Below, piece by piece: positions 54,738 through 63,010 of a DNA stretch of 63,282 bases (position 1 is its first letter; every line of letters starts with the position of its first letter). The DNA is from Pseudomonadota bacterium (GTDB taxonomy: Bacteria; Myxococcota_A; Polyangia; Polyangiales; JAFGIB01). The notes beneath the pieces were generated by a model that did no database searches, was not told the origin of the DNA, and saw only the letters and a program-made list of their open reading frames with translations. Both the position numbers and the translations under genes were made by a program. The DNA is taken from positions 1 through 63,282 of the forward strand of contig JADGRE010000004.1 of NCBI GenBank assembly GCA_017881185.1, read 5' to 3'.

Positions 54738-55595
54738 TCACGACGCGCTGAACCGCGCACGTTTGGCTGCCAGCAGCTGCACACCCTGACGGGCCACGGC
54801 CTGCACGAGCTGGCCCATCTTCGGGTGCACAGGCACCAGATCGACGGCGAGCCCGTGCTCCTGCAAGCTCTCACTGGTCACTGGACCGATGGAGACGACG
54901 AGCACGGTCTGCGACAACGCGCGCCGCAGTTGCTGCTGCTGCCCCTGCTCGGCCGCGATCTGAAGCAGGTGGTCGACCTGGCGGCGACTGGTGAACAAGA
55001 TCGCGTCGGCCTCGCCGCCGCACAGCAGCGCAATGGCCGTGCGCAACGGCCCGGTGTCTTGCGGCAACGCCCAGCCATAGAGCGGCAGGGGATTCACCTT
55101 CGCCCCGCGCTGCGCCAGTGCGGCGCACAGCTCGAGGCTCGGCTGGCCGTATTCTTGGACGACAACCGTCTTGCCCGCGACCGGGACGCGCGTGTCGAAG
55201 ACCGCGAGCAGGTCTTTCCAGGTGTTGGGTTCGTCGGCCACGGCGGCGGCGCGCAGGCCCATGCTCTTGAGCACGGCCACGGGCTTGGGGCCACGGCACA
55301 CGAGCTGCGTCTTGTCCAACGCCTCGGTCAGCTGCGCTGCGGTCCAGTGTGCGTTGAGCACGTCGAGCAACAAACGCGCGCCGACGCCAGTGAGCAGAAC
55401 GAGCACATCGCACTTTGCAGCCATCAGCTGCTGCCCGAACTTAGCCGCTGCCGTTTGATCGCTCAGCGGGACCTCGCGCATGGACGGCGCGTTGATGGCC
55501 GTGCAGCCGTGGCGCTCCAGCAAGCGCACCATCTCCGGGGCTTGGCGGCTCTCGAGCGTGACGACGCGCAGCGGCTGTGGCGGGTCGGTGGTCAT
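54738..55595 (-). CDS. hemD: Uroporphyrinogen-III synthase
   Basis: VTLESRQ, LLTGVGA, RGPKP, QEYG, LYGWALP, FTSRRQV and SIGPVTSESL; ATGA overlap with the upstream gene. Confidence 0.88.
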   Translation of the reverse strand: MTTDPPQPLRVVTLESRQAPEMVRLLERHGCTAINAPSMREVPLSDQTAAAKFGQQLMAAKCDVLVLLTGVGARLLLDVLNAHWTAAQLTEALDKTQLVCRGPKPVAVLKSMGLRAAAVADEPNTWKDLLAVFDTRVPVAGKTVVVQEYGQPSLELCAALAQRGAKVNPLPLYGWALPQDTGPLRTAIALLCGGEADAILFTSRRQVDHLLQIAAEQGQQQQLRRALSQTVLVVSIGPVTSESLQEHGLAVDLVPVHPKMGQLVQAVARQGVQLLAAKRARFSAS

Positions 55596-58045
55596 AGGGG
55601 GCGGGCCTTTTGGGTCTCGGGCTTCGCGAGTCGCGCAGCGGTCCACGGCAGTGCCGCGAGCACGTACAACCCGGCACCACACCATAGCGCGGCATGGGTG
55701 CCGGCGTGGAGGGACACCAGGGTCGCGATGATCGAGCCGAGCACCGAGGCTGCGCCGTTGACGCCCCACAGCCAGGCCACGCGCGCCGAATCACCACGGG
55801 CACTGCGCGCCAAGCCTGCAGGCAACGGCACGCCGAGCAACACGCCCAGCGGCGCGATCAACACCACGACTGCAAGCACGCGACCAGGCAGAGCCGCGCC
55901 TCGGGCCGCGCCGAACACGAGCTCCAACACCGCGGGCAGGCCCGCAATCACGAGCCCGACACCGAGCAGCCACACGCCGGTGCGCCAGCCTGCCGCGCGC
56001 GCGGCGAACGCGCGGCTGCCGACACCGCCTGCGAGCAGCAACACGCACAACACGGCGACCAGCGTGTAGGTCGGCTGCCCGAGAAAGAGCGTGACGCGGT
56101 GCACGAGCGCAATCTCGACGCACATGAAGCCCACACCCAAGCTCGCGACGTACGCCAGATCGGCGCCGAGCCCACGCGCGTCACCGAGCTTCACGCGGCG
56201 CATCCACGCCAGCGGCAAGAGCGAGCACGCCACCAGCATGCCGAGCGCCAGCGCCAGCACCTTCGCCAGCACGGCGAGGCCGTTGCCGAACAGGTGCGTG
56301 GTCTTGCCGGGGCGCAACGCGCGCGCGAAGTCGGAAAAACGATTCTGGTAGAAGAAGAACGGGCGTTCGTCGTGGACCGCGCTCACGTCGACCGGCCAGC
56401 GCTCGAGCTGTGCCTCCAGGCGCGCTTCGTCGTGCTCGACGAGCAAGGTCTGCACGAAGCTGTCTTCGGCGCTCAGCGGGCTGAAGGCGCGACCCGGCAC
56501 GAAGCCTGGCTCGAAGCCGAGCGACACCAACGCGTGCTGCATGGCCCGTGTCTGCTGCTCGCTGAAGCCGTCCGGCTTGATCATCACGTCGTACAGCACG
56601 GAGTCAGGGCGCGGGACCCAGCGCGTGTGGGCCACGGCCACGGCGCGAGAGGGATCGCCACCGCGACCCCGCACGGCAGCACGCGCGATGGCAGCCAGGC
56701 GCGCGCCGACCGCGAGCCCAGGCAAGCTCACCGTGGAGACCGTCAGCACTCCACCGGGATTGAGGCGCTCCAGGAACTCGTCGAACGCTTCCGTGGTGTA
56801 CAAGCCGTTCTCGGTCAGCGCATACGCGCCAGCGGCCGTCGCGGCGGAGGTGTCGACCATGCTGATCAGAATCACGTCGTAGCGCTGCTTGCTGCGCCGC
56901 AGGAAGGTGCGACCGTCTTCGACGTGCACGTCGACGTCGGGTCGCGTGTAGAGCCCACCGGAGAACTCGCGGTAGCGGCCGCGCATCACGTCGTCGACGA
57001 TGAGCGGGTTGATCTCCACGCCGGTCACGTGCTTCGCACCTGCCGCCAGCGCCGACAGCACGTCTTTGCCGCCGCCGGCGCCCACCACACACACGCTGCC
57101 CGGCTTGGGCACGAGCTGGTAGACGAACGCGCTCATGTCGGACAGCACGTACGCCACCTTCGCGAGGTCGCCGTCGAAGCGCGCGATGGGCGTGAGCGCG
57201 TTCATGTCGATGACCAAGCTCTTCTGCTCGGGCAGCGCGCCCTGGTAGCGCGGCGACAGACCCCAGCCGCGGAAACCGGGAGCGTCGAACACCGACACGA
57301 GCGAGAACGAATTCCAGAGCGTGAGCTCCGGGCGCGTGCGCGTGAGATCCACACCCTTGGCCGCGCGCAGCGCAAGCGCGTCGGAAGCGATGACCACGAG
57401 CGTGGCGGCGAGCAGAGCCGCTGCAACGACCAGCGGCGCGCGACGCGAAGGCACACGCGGGTCGACGCTGCGCATGACCAGCGCCGCGAGCGTCGCAAAG
57501 CACGCACAGCTCGCCAGCGCACGCGGCCCGCCCAGCCAGGAGATCAGTGGAATGGTGACGATGCAGCCGACTGCTGCACCCACCAGATCGGCGAAGTACA
57601 CGCGATGGACTTGCGCCGCATAGCGCGCAGTGGCCAGCGAGAGCACGAAGCCGCCGCCGACAAACGGCAACATCGTCAATGAGAACACGAGCGCAAGCTT
57701 CCATGTGAAGAGCGTGAACGCGCCCGACAGACCGCCGAACCAGTCCGGCCGCACCCGCGAAAGCGCAAGCGCAACCGCGAGCGTCGCGCCGCCTTGCAGT
57801 AGCGCAAAGCCACAGGCCAGCGCGCCCAGCGAGCGCTCCTGCCAGCGACGCTGCAGCATGTGCACCACCAGCGCCGACACGCTGGTTCCCAAGAGCGCGA
57901 CCGAGATCGCGAAGAAGGCGAAGTGGTACCAGACAGTCACCGACAACACGCGCGTCAGCGTGATCTCGGTCGCCATGAGCGAGGCACTGGTCAGGCCCAC
58001 GCCCCAGAGCGCACGCCGGGTCAATGCTGCCGTTGGCTGCGACAT
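55592..58045 (-). CDS. Polytopic membrane protein with a central spermidine-synthase-like SAM-binding domain (paralog 2)
   Basis: Same architecture as paralog 1: WNSFSLVSV, VVGAGGGKDV, GVEINP, EDGRTF, TENGLYTTEA, DERPFFF and WLWGVNG. Confidence 0.8.
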   Translation of the reverse strand: MSQPTAALTRRALWGVGLTSASLMATEITLTRVLSVTVWYHFAFFAISVALLGTSVSALVVHMLQRRWQERSLGALACGFALLQGGATLAVALALSRVRPDWFGGLSGAFTLFTWKLALVFSLTMLPFVGGGFVLSLATARYAAQVHRVYFADLVGAAVGCIVTIPLISWLGGPRALASCACFATLAALVMRSVDPRVPSRRAPLVVAAALLAATLVVIASDALALRAAKGVDLTRTRPELTLWNSFSLVSVFDAPGFRGWGLSPRYQGALPEQKSLVIDMNALTPIARFDGDLAKVAYVLSDMSAFVYQLVPKPGSVCVVGAGGGKDVLSALAAGAKHVTGVEINPLIVDDVMRGRYREFSGGLYTRPDVDVHVEDGRTFLRRSKQRYDVILISMVDTSAATAAGAYALTENGLYTTEAFDEFLERLNPGGVLTVSTVSLPGLAVGARLAAIARAAVRGRGGDPSRAVAVAHTRWVPRPDSVLYDVMIKPDGFSEQQTRAMQHALVSLGFEPGFVPGRAFSPLSAEDSFVQTLLVEHDEARLEAQLERWPVDVSAVHDERPFFFYQNRFSDFARALRPGKTTHLFGNGLAVLAKVLALALGMLVACSLLPLAWMRRVKLGDARGLGADLAYVASLGVGFMCVEIALVHRVTLFLGQPTYTLVAVLCVLLLAGGVGSRAFAARAAGWRTGVWLLGVGLVIAGLPAVLELVFGAARGAALPGRVLAVVVLIAPLGVLLGVPLPAGLARSARGDSARVAWLWGVNGAASVLGSIIATLVSLHAGTHAALWCGAGLYVLAALPWTAARLAKPETQKARPL

Positions 58046-58216
58046 GGACGAGCTGCACCCAAGCAGAGTGCGCGCGCCGCGGTCAAGTACGGGACGCACA
58101 ATTCGCCGGCCGACAAGCGGCTCTACACACAGGTTGCCCAGCAGTGCCACGCGCAGTGCCTTCCCCGATTGGTGTGGAGTGGGCTATCACTGCGCCTGGC
58201 CCCCGTGAACGCGACA

Positions 58217-60142
58217 ATGCCCCGCCCGTCACCCGTCCGTGGCCCCTGGCCAGGCTGGCTGTCGTTCGCGCTGCTCGCCTTCGCGCTGGTCGGCGTGCAC
58301 GTCGCGCTCACCTTCTACTTCGACCCGCCTGCCCTGCTCTTCGGCCCTCAGCCGGTGTCCGGCAGCGACTACGACACGCACATCGAACAGACCTGGCGCG
58401 TGTTGGAAGGCCTGGAGACTTGGGGCAAGAGCTGGGTCTACGACGTGCATCTGCTCGCCGGCAGTCCCAACGGCGTGATCTTCGACGCCGACAACAAAGG
58501 CTGGGAGTGGCTCACCTACGGCTTGGTGAAGCTGGGTCTGCGACGCGCGGTCGCATTCAACGCGTTCCTGCTGCTCGCACACTTGTTGGTGGTGCCGGTC
58601 ATGTTCTGGTCGGCGTGCTTGTTCGGCCTGCGTCGCGGCGGCGCGTTGCTGGCCGCTGCGCTCGGCTCCGCACTGTGGTTCTTCGATTCCTATCTGCACT
58701 GGATCTGGTGGGTCGGCACGCTCGCATTCGCGTTCGCGTCGTATTTCTACCTGTTGCCGCTGGCGCTCTTCTATCGCTTCTGTGAAGAGCGTCGCGCGCA
58801 TCATGCCGCGCTGTGCGCGCTCACGCTCGGCATCGCGCACCTCATTCATCCGTACACGTTCTTCCTGCTCGTCGTGCCCATGGCGATCTGTTACATGCGC
58901 GCGGGCCGACAGCTGCGCACCCGCGACCAAGCATGGGTGGCGGCCATCATCGTGTTCGTGATCGCGTCCAACGGCGAGTGGCTGCTGGAGTCGCTGCGAC
59001 AGTGGCACTACGTGCTCGACTCCGGTTACTTCGGACGCGGCGACATCGCACAGCTCGCCGCCGACTTCTCGGGCGTGCTACTCGACACCTCCACGACCGG
59101 CATCATCTTCACGCACACGGGCTTGCGTTTCGCCTGTTTCGGCGGGGCGCTGATCGCGCTTGCCGGCTACGTCAAACATGCGGACCGGCGCGCGCTACCG
59201 CTGGGTGTGGGTAGCGTGTTGCTGATCTTGCTCAGCTACCTCGGCGCCTACTCGCACTGGATCGCGCAGGTGCAGCCCTACCGTTTCGTCGGCGGCGCTG
59301 TATTCCTGTGCGCCATACTCACGGCCGACGCCTGCACGCAGAGCGAGCTGCGCGCGAGCTTTGCCGCGCTCAGCTTCCCCGGCAGAGCGCTGACTTGGGT
59401 GCTCTTGGTGCTGCTCGCCAAGCAACTGGTCACCGAATCAGTCTCGTACTTCCCGACCGCGCTACCCGAGGTGCCGCCACTGCTCGATGGCGTGCCTGCA
59501 CCGATCACCGCTACCGGCTACCCGAGCTTCGTCGACTACCGGCATTTCCCGGATCAACCGTTTGTGTGGGAGGTCTCCACGTGGGTCGACGCGCACGACG
59601 ACGGGCGCGGTCGCTTTCTCGTGCAGACCGGTGCGGTCGGTGAGCAGCTCGCGTGGAAGACCGATGCCGAGATCATCGGCGGCTTCACGCTACGCAACCT
59701 CGAGCACGCGCACGCCAACTTGTTCCGCCGACACCTGGAACACTCGATGACCCCCCAGCAAGTTCGCGCCTACCTCGAGGCCTACGCCATCGAGTGGGTG
59801 GTGCTGACCTTCCCCGACCGCTGGCTCGAGACCATGCCTGAACTGTTCGAGCTGCATGCGAACGTCGCAGGCACGGTGATGCTGAAGACCAAGGTGCCGA
59901 TCTCGCGCTTCGAGCAGGGCACCGGTGACGTGATCGCGAGCACCAATCGCATCGCCGTCACGCGCAGCGATCCGAACCAGGACGTGGTGCTGCGCTATCA
60001 CTTCCACGAGATGCTCGAATGTGCGCCGCGCTGCCGGATCGAAGCCCACCGCAATCCGGTCGGGGGCGTGCCGTTCATTCGCATTCCCGCGCCTCATCCC
60101 TCGAGCTTCGTGATCCGCAACATGTACGGCGCGGCCCACTGA
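58217..60142 (+). CDS. Polytopic membrane protein, GT-C/YfhO-like
   Basis: First TM followed by GSDYDTH, then many TMs (HLIHPY, QPYRF) and a soluble C-terminal domain. Confidence 0.6.
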   Translation: MPRPSPVRGPWPGWLSFALLAFALVGVHVALTFYFDPPALLFGPQPVSGSDYDTHIEQTWRVLEGLETWGKSWVYDVHLLAGSPNGVIFDADNKGWEWLTYGLVKLGLRRAVAFNAFLLLAHLLVVPVMFWSACLFGLRRGGALLAAALGSALWFFDSYLHWIWWVGTLAFAFASYFYLLPLALFYRFCEERRAHHAALCALTLGIAHLIHPYTFFLLVVPMAICYMRAGRQLRTRDQAWVAAIIVFVIASNGEWLLESLRQWHYVLDSGYFGRGDIAQLAADFSGVLLDTSTTGIIFTHTGLRFACFGGALIALAGYVKHADRRALPLGVGSVLLILLSYLGAYSHWIAQVQPYRFVGGAVFLCAILTADACTQSELRASFAALSFPGRALTWVLLVLLAKQLVTESVSYFPTALPEVPPLLDGVPAPITATGYPSFVDYRHFPDQPFVWEVSTWVDAHDDGRGRFLVQTGAVGEQLAWKTDAEIIGGFTLRNLEHAHANLFRRHLEHSMTPQQVRAYLEAYAIEWVVLTFPDRWLETMPELFELHANVAGTVMLKTKVPISRFEQGTGDVIASTNRIAVTRSDPNQDVVLRYHFHEMLECAPRCRIEAHRNPVGGVPFIRIPAPHPSSFVIRNMYGAAH

Positions 60143-60202: not shown

Positions 60203-61675
60203 ATGTTGACTTTCATTTTCAATAAGAAGCCGGGCACCCTGCCCTCTTGCGTGGCTGGGGTTGGCCTAGTGTTGGCCTGCTCCCTGGAGACCGGGGCCGT
60301 CAGCGCGCAACCCGCACCCACCGACGCACCCCCGAGCGCTGCGGTCGCCACGGCAAACGCGCCTCCCGCCACGGACGCACCCGGCGCTGCCACACAGCAG
60401 CCGCGCCCCGCCACCCCCGCCGCTGCGCCGCCAGCAGCCGCGCCCGCGACGGGCCCAGTGGTGTCGCTACCTGAGGCGCTGCCCGAACCGAACGAGGCGA
60501 CCAATGCCTCCCCCGCTACAGCCGTGGCACCCGTGCCAGCTGCGATGGGCGACGTCCCCGTGCTGCGCGCCGGTCACACCAGCGTGGGCGGCTACGCGGA
60601 GCTGCACTTGAACGTAGCTCACGTCACCGGGCCTGGCGCGCGCGACGCACAAATCGACCTCCACCGCTTCGTGCTGTTCCTGGCGCACGACTTCAACGAA
60701 CGACTGCGCTTCTATTCTGAGCTCGAGGTCGAGCACGCGGTCGCGTCGTCCACGGATCCGGGCGAAGTGGAGGTGGAGCAGGCGTACGTCGACTACCGCG
60801 CCATCGGAGACCAACTGGGCGTACGCGCGGGCCTTGTGCTCGTGCCCATGGGCATCATCAACCAGTGGCACGAGCCTCCGATGTTCCACGGCGTCGAGCG
60901 CCCCATGGTGGACACGTTGATCATTCCCACCACTTGGCGTGAAGCAGCCGTTGGTGTGTTCGGCGAACCGCTGCCGGGTCTACGCTATCAGCTCTACCTG
61001 ATGACCGCCCTCAACGCCTCGGGCTTCTCAGTCGGCCAGGGTTTGCGCGAAGGCATGGGCGAAACCGCGCTCGCACGCGCGAATGGGGCAGCGCTGAGCG
61101 CACGCATCGAATACGAACCCGTGCTCGGCGTGCTCGCCGGGCTGTCCGGTTACTACGGCAAGGCCGGCCCCAACGCCGACCTGCGAGACTCGGGCGGCAC
61201 GCCGCTACATCTGGGCGTGCCCGTGGCAGGCGTTGCAGCTGACATTCGCGCCCGCAGCCACGGCGTGGAGGCGCGCGCCGAGCTCGCGTATTTTCACGTG
61301 GGTAATACCGCTGCATTGCGCGCGGCAGCGGACAGCGACGGCAAGAGCCTCGGACTCGACGTGGGCGCGGCGCTGCTGGGGTACTACGGCGAGCTGGCCT
61401 ATGACGTGTTGTACAGCGCCAGAATCGAGCCCGCGTTGCTGCCGTTCGTGCGCCTCGAGCGCTACGACACACTGGCCAGCGTGGTCGGACGCGCGCGCAC
61501 TGCCGCGGATGCCAAAGCCGCGGCGACCGATGTGGTTGTCGGGCTCACCTTTCGCCCTGTCAGCCAGGTGGCGTTCAAGGCCGACTACCGGTGGAGCAAC
61601 CCCGACGGAGCCGACGCCAGCGGCCACTCCGACGCCACCGGCCAGGCCGACTTCGGGCTGGGCGTGATGTTTTGA
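60203..61675 (+). CDS. Outer membrane porin-like beta-barrel with Pro/Ala-rich N-terminal linker
   Basis: Signal peptide; GGYAELH, RFVLFLAHDF, YSELEVEH, EQAYVDY, HEPPMFHGVERP, IIPTTWRE; ends in terminal Phe (GLGVMF). The start may instead be GTG 60251. Confidence 0.8.
   Translation: MLTFIFNKKPGTLPSCVAGVGLVLACSLETGAVSAQPAPTDAPPSAAVATANAPPATDAPGAATQQPRPATPAAAPPAAAPATGPVVSLPEALPEPNEATNASPATAVAPVPAAMGDVPVLRAGHTSVGGYAELHLNVAHVTGPGARDAQIDLHRFVLFLAHDFNERLRFYSELEVEHAVASSTDPGEVEVEQAYVDYRAIGDQLGVRAGLVLVPMGIINQWHEPPMFHGVERPMVDTLIIPTTWREAAVGVFGEPLPGLRYQLYLMTALNASGFSVGQGLREGMGETALARANGAALSARIEYEPVLGVLAGLSGYYGKAGPNADLRDSGGTPLHLGVPVAGVAADIRARSHGVEARAELAYFHVGNTAALRAAADSDGKSLGLDVGAALLGYYGELAYDVLYSARIEPALLPFVRLERYDTLASVVGRARTAADAKAAATDVVVGLTFRPVSQVAFKADYRWSNPDGADASGHSDATGQADFGLGVMF
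60206..60222. promoter_or_regulatory. Fur-box-like palindrome at the porin 5' end
   Basis: TTGACTTTCATTTTCAA (reverse strand TTGAAAATGAAAGTCAA): AT-rich and similar to Fur-type TGAAAATGA/TCATTTTCA sites. Confidence 0.55.
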
Positions 61676-61703
61676 GAATGACCCATTAACCACATGTTTT
61701 CAA
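61672..61703. promoter_or_regulatory. Inverted Fur-like half-sites in the AT-rich porin/FMN-gene spacer
   Basis: TTGAGAATGA (61672-61681) and TGTTTTCAA (61695-61703). Confidence 0.35.
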
Positions 61704-61799
61704 TGACATACAGACTCGCCATCGACGCCGTTGGTGGCCAAACCTACGGAAACGGTTGATCTCCCTGTGCCCGGGGTTTATGTAACGGACGCGGTCTTG

Positions 61800-61816
61800 A
61801 TGAAAACGAAGTTCAA
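61800..61816 (+). promoter_or_regulatory. Third Fur-like box overlapping the FMN-gene ATG
   Basis: ATGAAAACGAAGTTCAA matches 13/17 positions of the reverse complement of the 60206 box. Confidence 0.35.
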
Positions 61817-62420
61817 CAGCATTTTCATTTGGCGCAGATCAAGCAGGCCCCTCTTGGCCCTGCTGGCGTTGGCAATCGGCGCCGGCTGCCTCTGCGGACG
61901 CGCCGCACCGGCCCGAGCCGAAGAGCTGTGGACTGCGCGTGACTTGCTGTCGCAGCACTTCAAGAGCTCCGAGCGCGTCGGCTACGTTCGCGTCGAGCTG
62001 AGCGCCGAGCAACGCAAGCACATCGAAGCCCGCATCGGGCGAGCGTTGCCCAAGGCCAGCTACACCTTCTTCGTGGCCACGACACACGGTCGCGTCGATG
62101 GCTACGCGCTCTTCGACGAGCAGGTCGGACAACACGAGCCCATCTCGTTCGCCACCTTCTTCGACGTCGATGGCCACGTCACACGCGTCGAAGTGGTCGC
62201 GTACCGCGAGCCCTACGGCGATGGCATCCGTTCGCCGCGCTTCCGCAAACAGTTCGTGGGGCGCTCGGCCCACAGCCAGTTCCAGCCCGGCGCCGACATC
62301 GACGCCGTCTCAGGCGCCACGATCTCGTCGCGATCGATGTGCGTCGGCGTCGAGCGCGCTGCCGCACTGCTGGACGAGACGCTGCTAAAGCAAACGCCGG
62401 CAGTGCTCGCCGCGCGATGA
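61800..62420 (+). CDS. Exported FMN-binding (RnfG/NqrC-like FMN_bind) protein
   Basis: Signal peptide, GQHEPISF, AYREPYG, F.KQFVG and the flavinylation motif IDAVSGATISS. Confidence 0.88.
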   Translation: MKTKFNSIFIWRRSSRPLLALLALAIGAGCLCGRAAPARAEELWTARDLLSQHFKSSERVGYVRVELSAEQRKHIEARIGRALPKASYTFFVATTHGRVDGYALFDEQVGQHEPISFATFFDVDGHVTRVEVVAYREPYGDGIRSPRFRKQFVGRSAHSQFQPGADIDAVSGATISSRSMCVGVERAAALLDETLLKQTPAVLAAR

Positions 62421-63010
62421 GAGCGTTCGCGCGCTCCGGCGGGCGCCTGCGCACACTGCCCATGCAGGCGCGGGTCGTCTACACGATATTCCTCGTGTTC
62501 ACGTTGGCCGCCTTGGCACTGACCGCCTGGCTCGGCGCTGCCATGGTGGGCCCGGATCTCGGACGAGTCGGCGAGTACTACGCCGGCACACCGACGCCGC
62601 AACCAGCTGCGAGCGGCGTGCAGGCAGGCAATGGCCCCAAGCTCGACCTCCCGGACGATGCGCTCCCGACGACTGCCGACCACGACCCGATGCCCACGCG
62701 CAAGCTGCTCGAGGTCACGCACTTCCATCTGTTCTCGATGCCCGTGTACCTCGTGATCCTCTCGCACCTGTTCATGCTGAGCACGCTGCGCGCGCGCACC
62801 AAGCTCTTGTGGATCGGCGGCGGCTCGCTGGCGGTGGCGCTACACATCGCTGCGCCGTGGATCGCGCGCAGCGGTGCGGCGGGCTCCGCGCTGATCTACG
62901 GCGTTTCGGGCAGCCTGCTGGCGCTGAGCTTCCTCGTGATGAGCGTGGTGCCGCTACTGGAGATGTGGCGGCAGCGCAGCGACGAAGCAGCAGCAGCCGC
63001 GGCGCACTGA
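62417..63010 (+). CDS. Four-TM membrane protein with intramembrane histidines (possible b-type heme binding)
   Basis: KLLEVTHFHLFSM, ILSHLFM and ALHIAAP; ATGA-coupled to the FMN-binding gene. Confidence 0.65.
   Translation: MRAFARSGGRLRTLPMQARVVYTIFLVFTLAALALTAWLGAAMVGPDLGRVGEYYAGTPTPQPAASGVQAGNGPKLDLPDDALPTTADHDPMPTRKLLEVTHFHLFSMPVYLVILSHLFMLSTLRARTKLLWIGGGSLAVALHIAAPWIARSGAAGSALIYGVSGSLLALSFLVMSVVPLLEMWRQRSDEAAAAAAH

Follow-up and report, generated by a model that had tools for sequence, protein, structure and literature searches.

A conserved module of porin, FMN-binding protein and Aq_1264_TM membrane protein, predicted to be iron-regulated and possibly involved in reductive iron acquisition, in a genome related to Polyangiales

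We analyzed a 63,282-nt stretch of DNA (the window), which is one whole contig (C208) of a ~6-Mb genome with 68% G+C and 94% completeness, whose nearest relatives are metagenome-assembled genomes of Polyangiales. Three co-oriented genes at the 3' end of the window encode an outer-membrane porin, an exported protein with a flavin mononucleotide (FMN)-binding domain (FMN_bind), and a four-helix inner-membrane protein of the uncharacterized Pfam family PF27139, Aq_1264_TM. The linkage of these genes supports the view that they form a conserved functional unit across phyla, and the operator-like sites at their starts predict that the unit is repressed by Fur and regulated by iron. Literature searches found no published description of a porin/FMN_bind/Aq_1264_TM module and no papers on aq_1264; the module is apparently conserved, iron-linked and undescribed. 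We propose that it acts in the envelope, under repression by Fur, to acquire iron by reduction, and that it would operate without TonB or a siderophore receptor. Taken as a whole chain, we judge this proposal to be evenly balanced between right and wrong.

The linkage of the three genes is far beyond chance. In a set of 80 loci from species-representative genomes, which over-samples a clade with the porin 11-15 kb away, the FMN_bind gene lies directly upstream of the Aq_1264_TM gene in 78 loci, and the remaining two end at a contig edge. In an evenly sampled set of 201 genomes of the phylum (the phylum sample), strong matches to the membrane protein were found in 52 genomes and strong matches to the porin in 57, with both present in 50. 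The porin and Aq_1264_TM genes are within about 3 kb of each other in 38 genomes, a gap that fits the flavoprotein gene, and in five they share a contig at a distance of 11-15 kb. The order of the porin (P), flavoprotein (F) and Aq_1264_TM (T) genes is P-F-T, F-P-T or F-T-P, with proximity retained. Thus the suggestion of the initial annotation that the three genes belong to one module is upheld by a recurring linkage, in which 50 of the 52 genomes positive for the membrane protein also have the porin. The same phylum sample places ApbE in 59 of 60 genomes positive for the membrane protein, and in 166 of all 201 genomes, such that ApbE is also common where the membrane protein is missing.

Distant and shorter forms of the module occur in Nitrospirota and Binatia, where a porin, a protein of ~150 aa, FMN_bind, the membrane protein and ApbE stand alongside each other. 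Other loci combine a porin, an ApbE::FMN_bind fusion, the membrane protein and a cupredoxin. Compared with these, the window is a typical member of the module with an unlinked apbE. The ~150-aa protein, encoded between the porin and the flavoprotein at L087:4836-5300, L089:4816-5310 and L090:4785-5228 (Nitrospirota and Binatia), shows weak DUF3576 and NlpB-like matches and is not part of the module in the window. A single sequence of 590 aa (L103:5001-6773) joins FMN_bind to a porin. This locus has no Aq_1264_TM gene within ~7 kb around it, no second signal peptide and no Fur-type box, and it could be either a true fusion or a sequencing artefact.

The coordinates of the module and of its sequence features are collected in Table 1. 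The stop codon of the FMN_bind gene and the start codon of the Aq_1264_TM gene overlap as ATGA at 62417-62420, an arrangement that implies translational coupling. The true start of the FMN_bind gene is the ATG listed, corrected from a TTG at 61731. A convergent open reading frame begins after 63129, beyond the Aq_1264_TM gene, and no apbE, TonB, feoB or FTR1 gene is present within the three-gene unit. The architecture that had been read from the letters alone, namely three co-oriented genes for a porin with a conserved loop motif and a terminal Phe, an exported FMN_bind protein with an intact DAVSGAT and an ATGA-coupled protein with four transmembrane segments, ended by a convergent gene and lacking apbE, TonB, feoB and FTR1, was recovered in every part. 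Rfam, promoter and terminator scans of the region returned nothing useful.

Table 1. Genes, candidate operator sites and key residues of the three-gene unit (positions in the window)
Feature	Position	Strand	Remarks
Outer-membrane porin gene	60203..61675	+	490 aa
Fur-type 7-1-7 box TGACTTTCATTTTCA	60207..60221	+	over first codons of the porin gene
Porin motif NQWHEPPMFHGVERP	60860..60904	+	porin residues 220-234; best-conserved stretch of the porin family
FMN_bind gene	61800..62420	+	206 aa; Sec-exported; predicted ApbE substrate
Two overlapping Fur-type boxes TGAAAACGAAGTTCA, TCAACAGCATTTTCA	61801..61827	+	FMN_bind start codon and first codons
SGAT flavinylation motif, Ser171-Gly-Ala-Thr174	62310..62321	+	Thr is the predicted FMN site
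Aq_1264_TM gene	62417..63010	+	197 aa; four-helix inner-membrane protein
H102-F-H104 of the THFH motif	62720..62728	+	periplasmic end of transmembrane helix 2 (TM2)
H117 (SH)	62765..62767	+	near cytoplasmic end of TM2
H143 (LH)	62843..62845	+	TM3, periplasmic side

The prediction of iron regulation comes from a palindrome, TGAAAATnATTTTCA, which has the 7-1-7 layout of Fur-type boxes and overlaps the starts of both the porin and FMN_bind genes. No other stretch around the flavoprotein start is as rich in A and T in the orthologues. The 63-kb window contains three matches to TGAAAATNATTTTCA with up to three mismatches, against 0.2 expected; one is at the start of the porin gene, and two overlapping ones are at the start of the flavoprotein gene. 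The box at the FMN_bind start is found with up to two mismatches in 44 of 78 orthologous loci. At the same threshold, 1.0 Mb of orthologous loci yielded 53 matches, of which our script assigned 47 to FMN_bind starts and four to porin starts. By their coordinates the last two are also at the module, one beside the FMN_bind gene and the other at the start of a porin gene on the minus strand. In loci L004 and L088, the matches precede the porin gene, within non-coding DNA, and agree with the classical Fur consensus at 15-16/19.

We then built a matrix of the box from the orthologues only and used it to scan the window's own genome. The highest-ranking site lies between a Fur-family gene, recognized by its HHDH and CxxC signatures, and a gene for a cytochrome c::FTR1 protein; the second precedes bfd-bfr by about 50 nt. 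The flavoprotein start takes ranks 3 and 5 in this ~6-Mb genome, and the porin start rank 14. Accordingly, an inverted repeat at gene starts is shared between the module and iron genes of the same genome. Independently, several Nitrospirota loci have genes for FUR, Bfd and ferritin on the flanks of the module. Both kinds of evidence, the Fur-type boxes at the two gene starts and the proximity of fur, bfd and bfr in distant relatives, support the iron regulation put forward in the initial annotation. On contig C389 (4866-7456), the Fur-family gene, the best box of the genome and the cytochrome c-FTR1 gene follow each other on the same strand, and the latter encodes a protein of 659 aa in which a periplasmic cytochrome c domain is fused to an FTR1 iron permease. 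The bfd-bfr pair, located at C153:1092-1831, encodes a BFD-like ferredoxin and a bacterioferritin.

We take the box to resemble actinobacterial Zur boxes as well. Control by Zur instead of Fur was rejected and Fur was favored, because the best copies in the genome adjoin fur/cytochrome c-FTR1 and bfd-bfr, not zinc genes. A box scan of three other genomes (G001-G003) at up to two mismatches revealed no regulon and returned mostly chance matches in coding DNA, for example at the N-termini of Rossmann-fold proteins.

The FMN_bind protein of the window matches PF04205 with 37.5 bits (cut-off 22; E-value 3.9e-9). The NCBIfam RnfG models match it weakly, with E-values from 2e-11 to 6e-9, and below the family cut-offs (44 vs. 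205 bits). Its signal peptide ends in ARA|EE, an AXA cleavage site, and no Cys residue is conserved among the orthologues. The cleavable signal peptide and the lack of a conserved Cys identify the protein as soluble in the periplasm rather than as a lipoprotein. The SGAT motif, which is of the [S/T]GA[S/T] type defined for flavinylated proteins (PMC8238504), is embedded in DIDAVSGAT, with the Thr174 codon at nt 62319-62321, and is retained in 79-82 of 82 orthologues. RnfG and NqrC share with this protein the FMN_bind domain and the threonine-linked FMN motif; in contrast to them, it has a cleavable signal peptide instead of a membrane anchor, and no gene for an RnfD/NqrB-type partner adjoins its own.

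A search for apbE elsewhere in the genome, which the initial annotation had called for, located a single copy at C398:14809-16197 on the minus strand (262 bits), with no related genes beside it. The module's own flavoprotein is the only FMN_bind protein of this genome. With one apbE, one FMN_bind protein and an intact SGAT, the claim that the flavoprotein is an ApbE substrate is plausible.

The porin has 460 homologues, carries a signal peptide and ends in ...GLGVMF, with a terminal Phe. An AlphaFold2 (AF2) model built on 44 homologues comprises a barrel of 16 strands (residues 126-489) by DSSP, with a predicted local distance difference test score (pLDDT) above 90 in the barrel. A Foldseek search against PDB related this model to PorB, Omp32, OmpU, OmpC and OprP, with E-values of about 1e-12; the target-normalized TM-scores were 0.59-0.70 for PorB, Omp32, OmpU and OprP. 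At the level of sequence, Pfam and NCBIfam gave no match to the window porin, and searches of PDB sequences with the porin and with its profile gave none either. Some relatives match Porin_O_P (PF07396) faintly or below the threshold, and the window porin does not match it at the gathering score. The protein has the attributes of the general 16-strand porins, which are the barrel fold, the signal peptide and the C-terminal aromatic residue, and like PorB, Omp32, OmpU and OprP it has an inward-folding loop after strand 5.

The porin differs from these proteins in several respects besides its lack of a match to any Pfam porin model. The motif NQWHEPPMFHGVERP sits between strands 5 and 6 in the AF2 model, which is the position of the constriction loop L3. 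Within it, N220, H223, R233 and P234 are invariant among the 44 sequences, and conservation is 90% or higher at E224, P225, P226, F228, G230 and V231; a constriction loop in which a His and an Arg are invariant and a Glu nearly so distinguishes this family from general porins. A second distinction is a long Ala/Pro-rich linker, predicted to be disordered, between the signal peptide and the barrel (residues about 25-117; window 60275-60553). This linker of ~90 residues varies in length among the homologues and might serve as a periplasmic tether. Finally, and unlike the genes of general porins, the porin gene here is co-inherited with the flavoprotein and membrane protein genes.

The assignment of the membrane protein to PF27139 was taken from the precomputed table of the protein collection, which gives this label to the window protein and to 120 listed homologues; searches with the window protein itself against NCBIfam and a copy of Pfam lacking PF27139 gave no match. 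It is a small family: clustering at 50% identity yields 262 clusters among 1.8 billion representatives. The AF2 model (pLDDT 89.8) places the four helices at residues 16-44, 94-120, 126-152 and 157-184. The charge distribution across the loops predicts that both termini are cytoplasmic and that the long acidic loop 1 is periplasmic. All of 66 diverse family members have His at positions 102 and 104, and 64 have it at position 117, whereas position 143 is occupied by H (34), D (11), E (7), Y (4), N (4) or Q (2), being polar throughout and a His in about half of the family. Therefore, of the histidines in the THFH, SH and LH motifs that had been pointed out initially, all are present in the window protein and H102, H104 and H117 are conserved, but H143 (LH) is not.

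The three family-wide histidines are thus all on TM2, and TM1, TM3 and TM4 are almost devoid of conserved polar residues. By helical-wheel arithmetic, H102 and H117 would share a face with E99, F106, P109 and L113, and H104 would be on the opposite face. H117 follows H104 by 13 residues and H102 by 15. A pair of histidines 13 residues apart on one helix has the spacing of the di-haem cytochromes b, and H104 and H117, on the helix of residues 94-120, show this spacing. Two such pairs on different helices of one subunit, as in di-haem cytochromes b, were not found in the protein. The bis-His geometry that the initial annotation had proposed to look for in the predicted structure is therefore excluded for a monomer, as all three histidines are on one helix, and a haem-binding protein would require an oligomer that pairs identical histidines.

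Weaker matches to the family, with E-values from 1e-13 to 1e-17, cover helices 2-4 only and were found in genomes G010, G055, G085, G105, G112, G170, G180 and G200. Two of them are side by side in G105. They may constitute a divergent paralogue class.

The arrangement of conserved residues could also be that of an oligomeric inner-membrane permease for Fe(II) or another metal, with the porin admitting Fe(III) and the flavoprotein reducing it. The route from the outer membrane through the periplasm to the inner membrane would then be complete within three genes. The cluster of E99, H102, H104 and position 143 on the periplasmic side resembles an entry site for a metal, and H117, towards the cytoplasmic face, an exit site; an exchange of His for Asp or Glu, as seen at position 143, is typical of metal ligands. 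However, the near absence of conserved polar residues from TM1, TM3 and TM4 leaves little to line a pathway, hmmscan of the 66 members revealed no similarity to a known metal transporter family, and the periplasmic flavin would be left with no source of electrons. We consider the permease function unlikely.

The association with ApbE offers another possibility, in which the membrane protein would serve flavin hand-off or assembly, either by delivering flavin adenine dinucleotide (FAD) to ApbE in the periplasm or by keeping ApbE and its client side by side at the membrane, while the flavoprotein receives electrons from another source. ApbE adjoins the Aq_1264_TM gene in many lineages, and a natural fusion of the membrane protein to ApbE exists (P0368). 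The linker of this fusion looks like the signal peptide of ApbE itself acting as an export-directing fifth helix, in agreement with the topology predicted for the membrane protein. Moreover, to our knowledge, it is not established how most bacteria deliver FAD to the periplasm. On the other hand, at least 107 genomes of the phylum sample have ApbE and lack the membrane protein, which argues against a general helper of ApbE, and the protein is tied to one FMN_bind subfamily. In addition, the protein is small, having four helices, and lacks a partner for energy coupling, and its invariant intramembrane histidines suit a bound cofactor better than a transported flavin. The chance that it is an assembly factor is small in our estimation.

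Our preferred explanation is a redox chain across the periplasm. The single ApbE of the genome would attach FMN to Thr174 of the flavoprotein. The membrane protein would work as a homo-oligomer in which copies of TM2 enclose a redox cofactor between them, either haem b or a metal. This oligomer would relay electrons from the membrane or the cytoplasm to the covalent FMN, and the flavin would reduce an Fe(III) species admitted by the porin. The resulting Fe(II) would be imported by a separately encoded transporter, for which the cytochrome c::FTR1 permease is the best candidate, since its gene carries the best-scoring copy of the module's operator. Every characterized extracytosolic FMN_bind protein has a membrane partner for electron transfer (PMC8238504), and among membrane proteins Aq_1264_TM alone is a constant companion of this flavoprotein subfamily; it is for this reason that we favor an electron chain. 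Flavinylated proteins paired with membrane cytochromes have been implicated in iron reduction (PMC8238504), and the haem sites of the small cytochrome FezC are predicted to arise through homodimerization (bioRxiv 10.1101/2024.03.13.584918). The substrate, the direction of the electrons and the role of the membrane protein in this chain are what we infer from these relationships.

Several points weigh against the redox chain. It rests on predicted Fur binding, predicted flavinylation and a predicted cofactor content and substrate. The boxes overlap coding DNA, and their conservation could in part reflect that of the signal-peptide N-terminus. The unit includes no iron importer and no obvious electron donor. 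As a monomer the membrane protein is unable to make a bis-His site, and the variability of position 143 suits a metal or hydrogen-bond ligand better than an axial ligand of haem. We performed hmmscan with the 66 members at E-values up to 10 and listed the 25 most-matched families. In total, 47 families were matched, each by at most two members, and PepSY_TM, MsrQ/Ferric_reduct, DUF4405, cytochrome b561, NapH, DsbD and NqrB/RnfD were not among the 25 listed. Likewise, a Foldseek search of the model against PDB gave no match at an E-value of 0.001 or better, the best being MAPEG with an E-value of 0.6. Lastly, a cupredoxin follows the Aq_1264_TM gene in some Nitrospirota, and the acceptor of the electrons may not be iron itself.

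The cupredoxins bring in a further alternative, which is a different metal-controlled redox task, such as passing electrons to periplasmic cupredoxins, handling copper, or oxidizing Fe(II) with electrons flowing inward. In the Nitrospirota loci L086, L088, L101 and L102, the Aq_1264_TM gene is followed by one or two Cupredoxin_1 genes in translational coupling, which suggests that a copper protein is the next redox partner there; HMA, NikR and ABC-3 genes are also near the module in L088. Cupredoxins act as oxidants of Fe(II) in FtrABCD-type systems. Nevertheless, the versions of the module in Myxococcota, including that of the window, have no cupredoxin, and the regulatory sites and neighboring genes indicate iron starvation rather than copper. 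We regard this alternative as very unlikely.

Among known systems, the module of reductive iron acquisition that we propose is comparable to those with PepSY-like (FoxB-type) and MsrQ-like proteins (Meheust et al. 2021, PMC8238504), which also combine an ApbE-flavinylated periplasmic protein with a small His-bearing inner-membrane protein and are tied to iron assimilation and an outer-membrane entry route. It differs from them in that its membrane protein belongs to PF27139, has no detectable relation to theirs and carries its conserved histidines on one helix, and in that its outer-membrane partner is a diffusion porin instead of a TonB-dependent receptor. The flavinylation- and ferrosome-associated cytochromes DUF4405 and FezC (Huang et al. 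2024, bioRxiv 10.1101/2024.03.13.584918) are likewise small membrane proteins from apbE neighborhoods with His as the most conserved residues, and homodimeric haem sites of the kind predicted for FezC would be needed by Aq_1264_TM as well. In contrast, no sequence similarity was detected between these cytochromes and Aq_1264_TM, their helix numbers and His patterns differ, and haem binding, which has been demonstrated experimentally for DUF4405 and FezC, is hypothetical for the protein described here. Like the P19/FTR1 and FtrABCD systems, the module would couple periplasmic redox proteins (a flavinylated protein or a cupredoxin) to iron import under iron control, and the cytochrome c::FTR1 permease gene of the same genome shares its operator. 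In contrast to these systems, FTR1 and P19 are outside the unit, and the REXXE motifs that mark the FTR1 family are missing from the membrane protein.

Electron transfer by extracytosolic flavinylated proteins is a recently recognized theme, with membrane partners known for six or so classes. The catalogued partners comprise NapH-like, MsrQ-like, PepSY-like, DsbD, NQR/RNF-like and DUF4405 proteins (PMC8238504; bioRxiv 10.1101/2024.03.13.584918), and these two catalogues neither mention a porin nor contain the phrase "four transmembrane". If our proposal is correct, a further class of membrane partner and a dedicated porin would be added to the flavinylation systems, the Pfam family PF27139, currently without a function, would receive one, and Myxococcota, Nitrospirota, Binatia and other poorly studied phyla would have a reductive iron uptake independent of siderophores and TonB. 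More broadly, a porin, an ApbE-flavinylated protein and Aq_1264_TM may together form a widespread and undescribed siderophore- and TonB-free iron uptake system of diderms, with the membrane protein as a new class of electron carrier that uses its three invariant histidines to hold a cofactor between identical helices of an oligomer; we advance this generalization tentatively, as a possibility rather than an expectation. The parts of the module are few and small, making it directly testable by heterologous expression and spectroscopy.

Upstream of the porin, the region at 55592-60142 of the window contains two large membrane-protein genes, one encoding a 641-aa protein with a PTPS_related domain on the plus strand and the other an 852-aa protein with a spermidine-synthase-like domain on the minus strand. 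Both were considered as members of the unit and excluded, since their synteny with it extends to the two closest relatives only.

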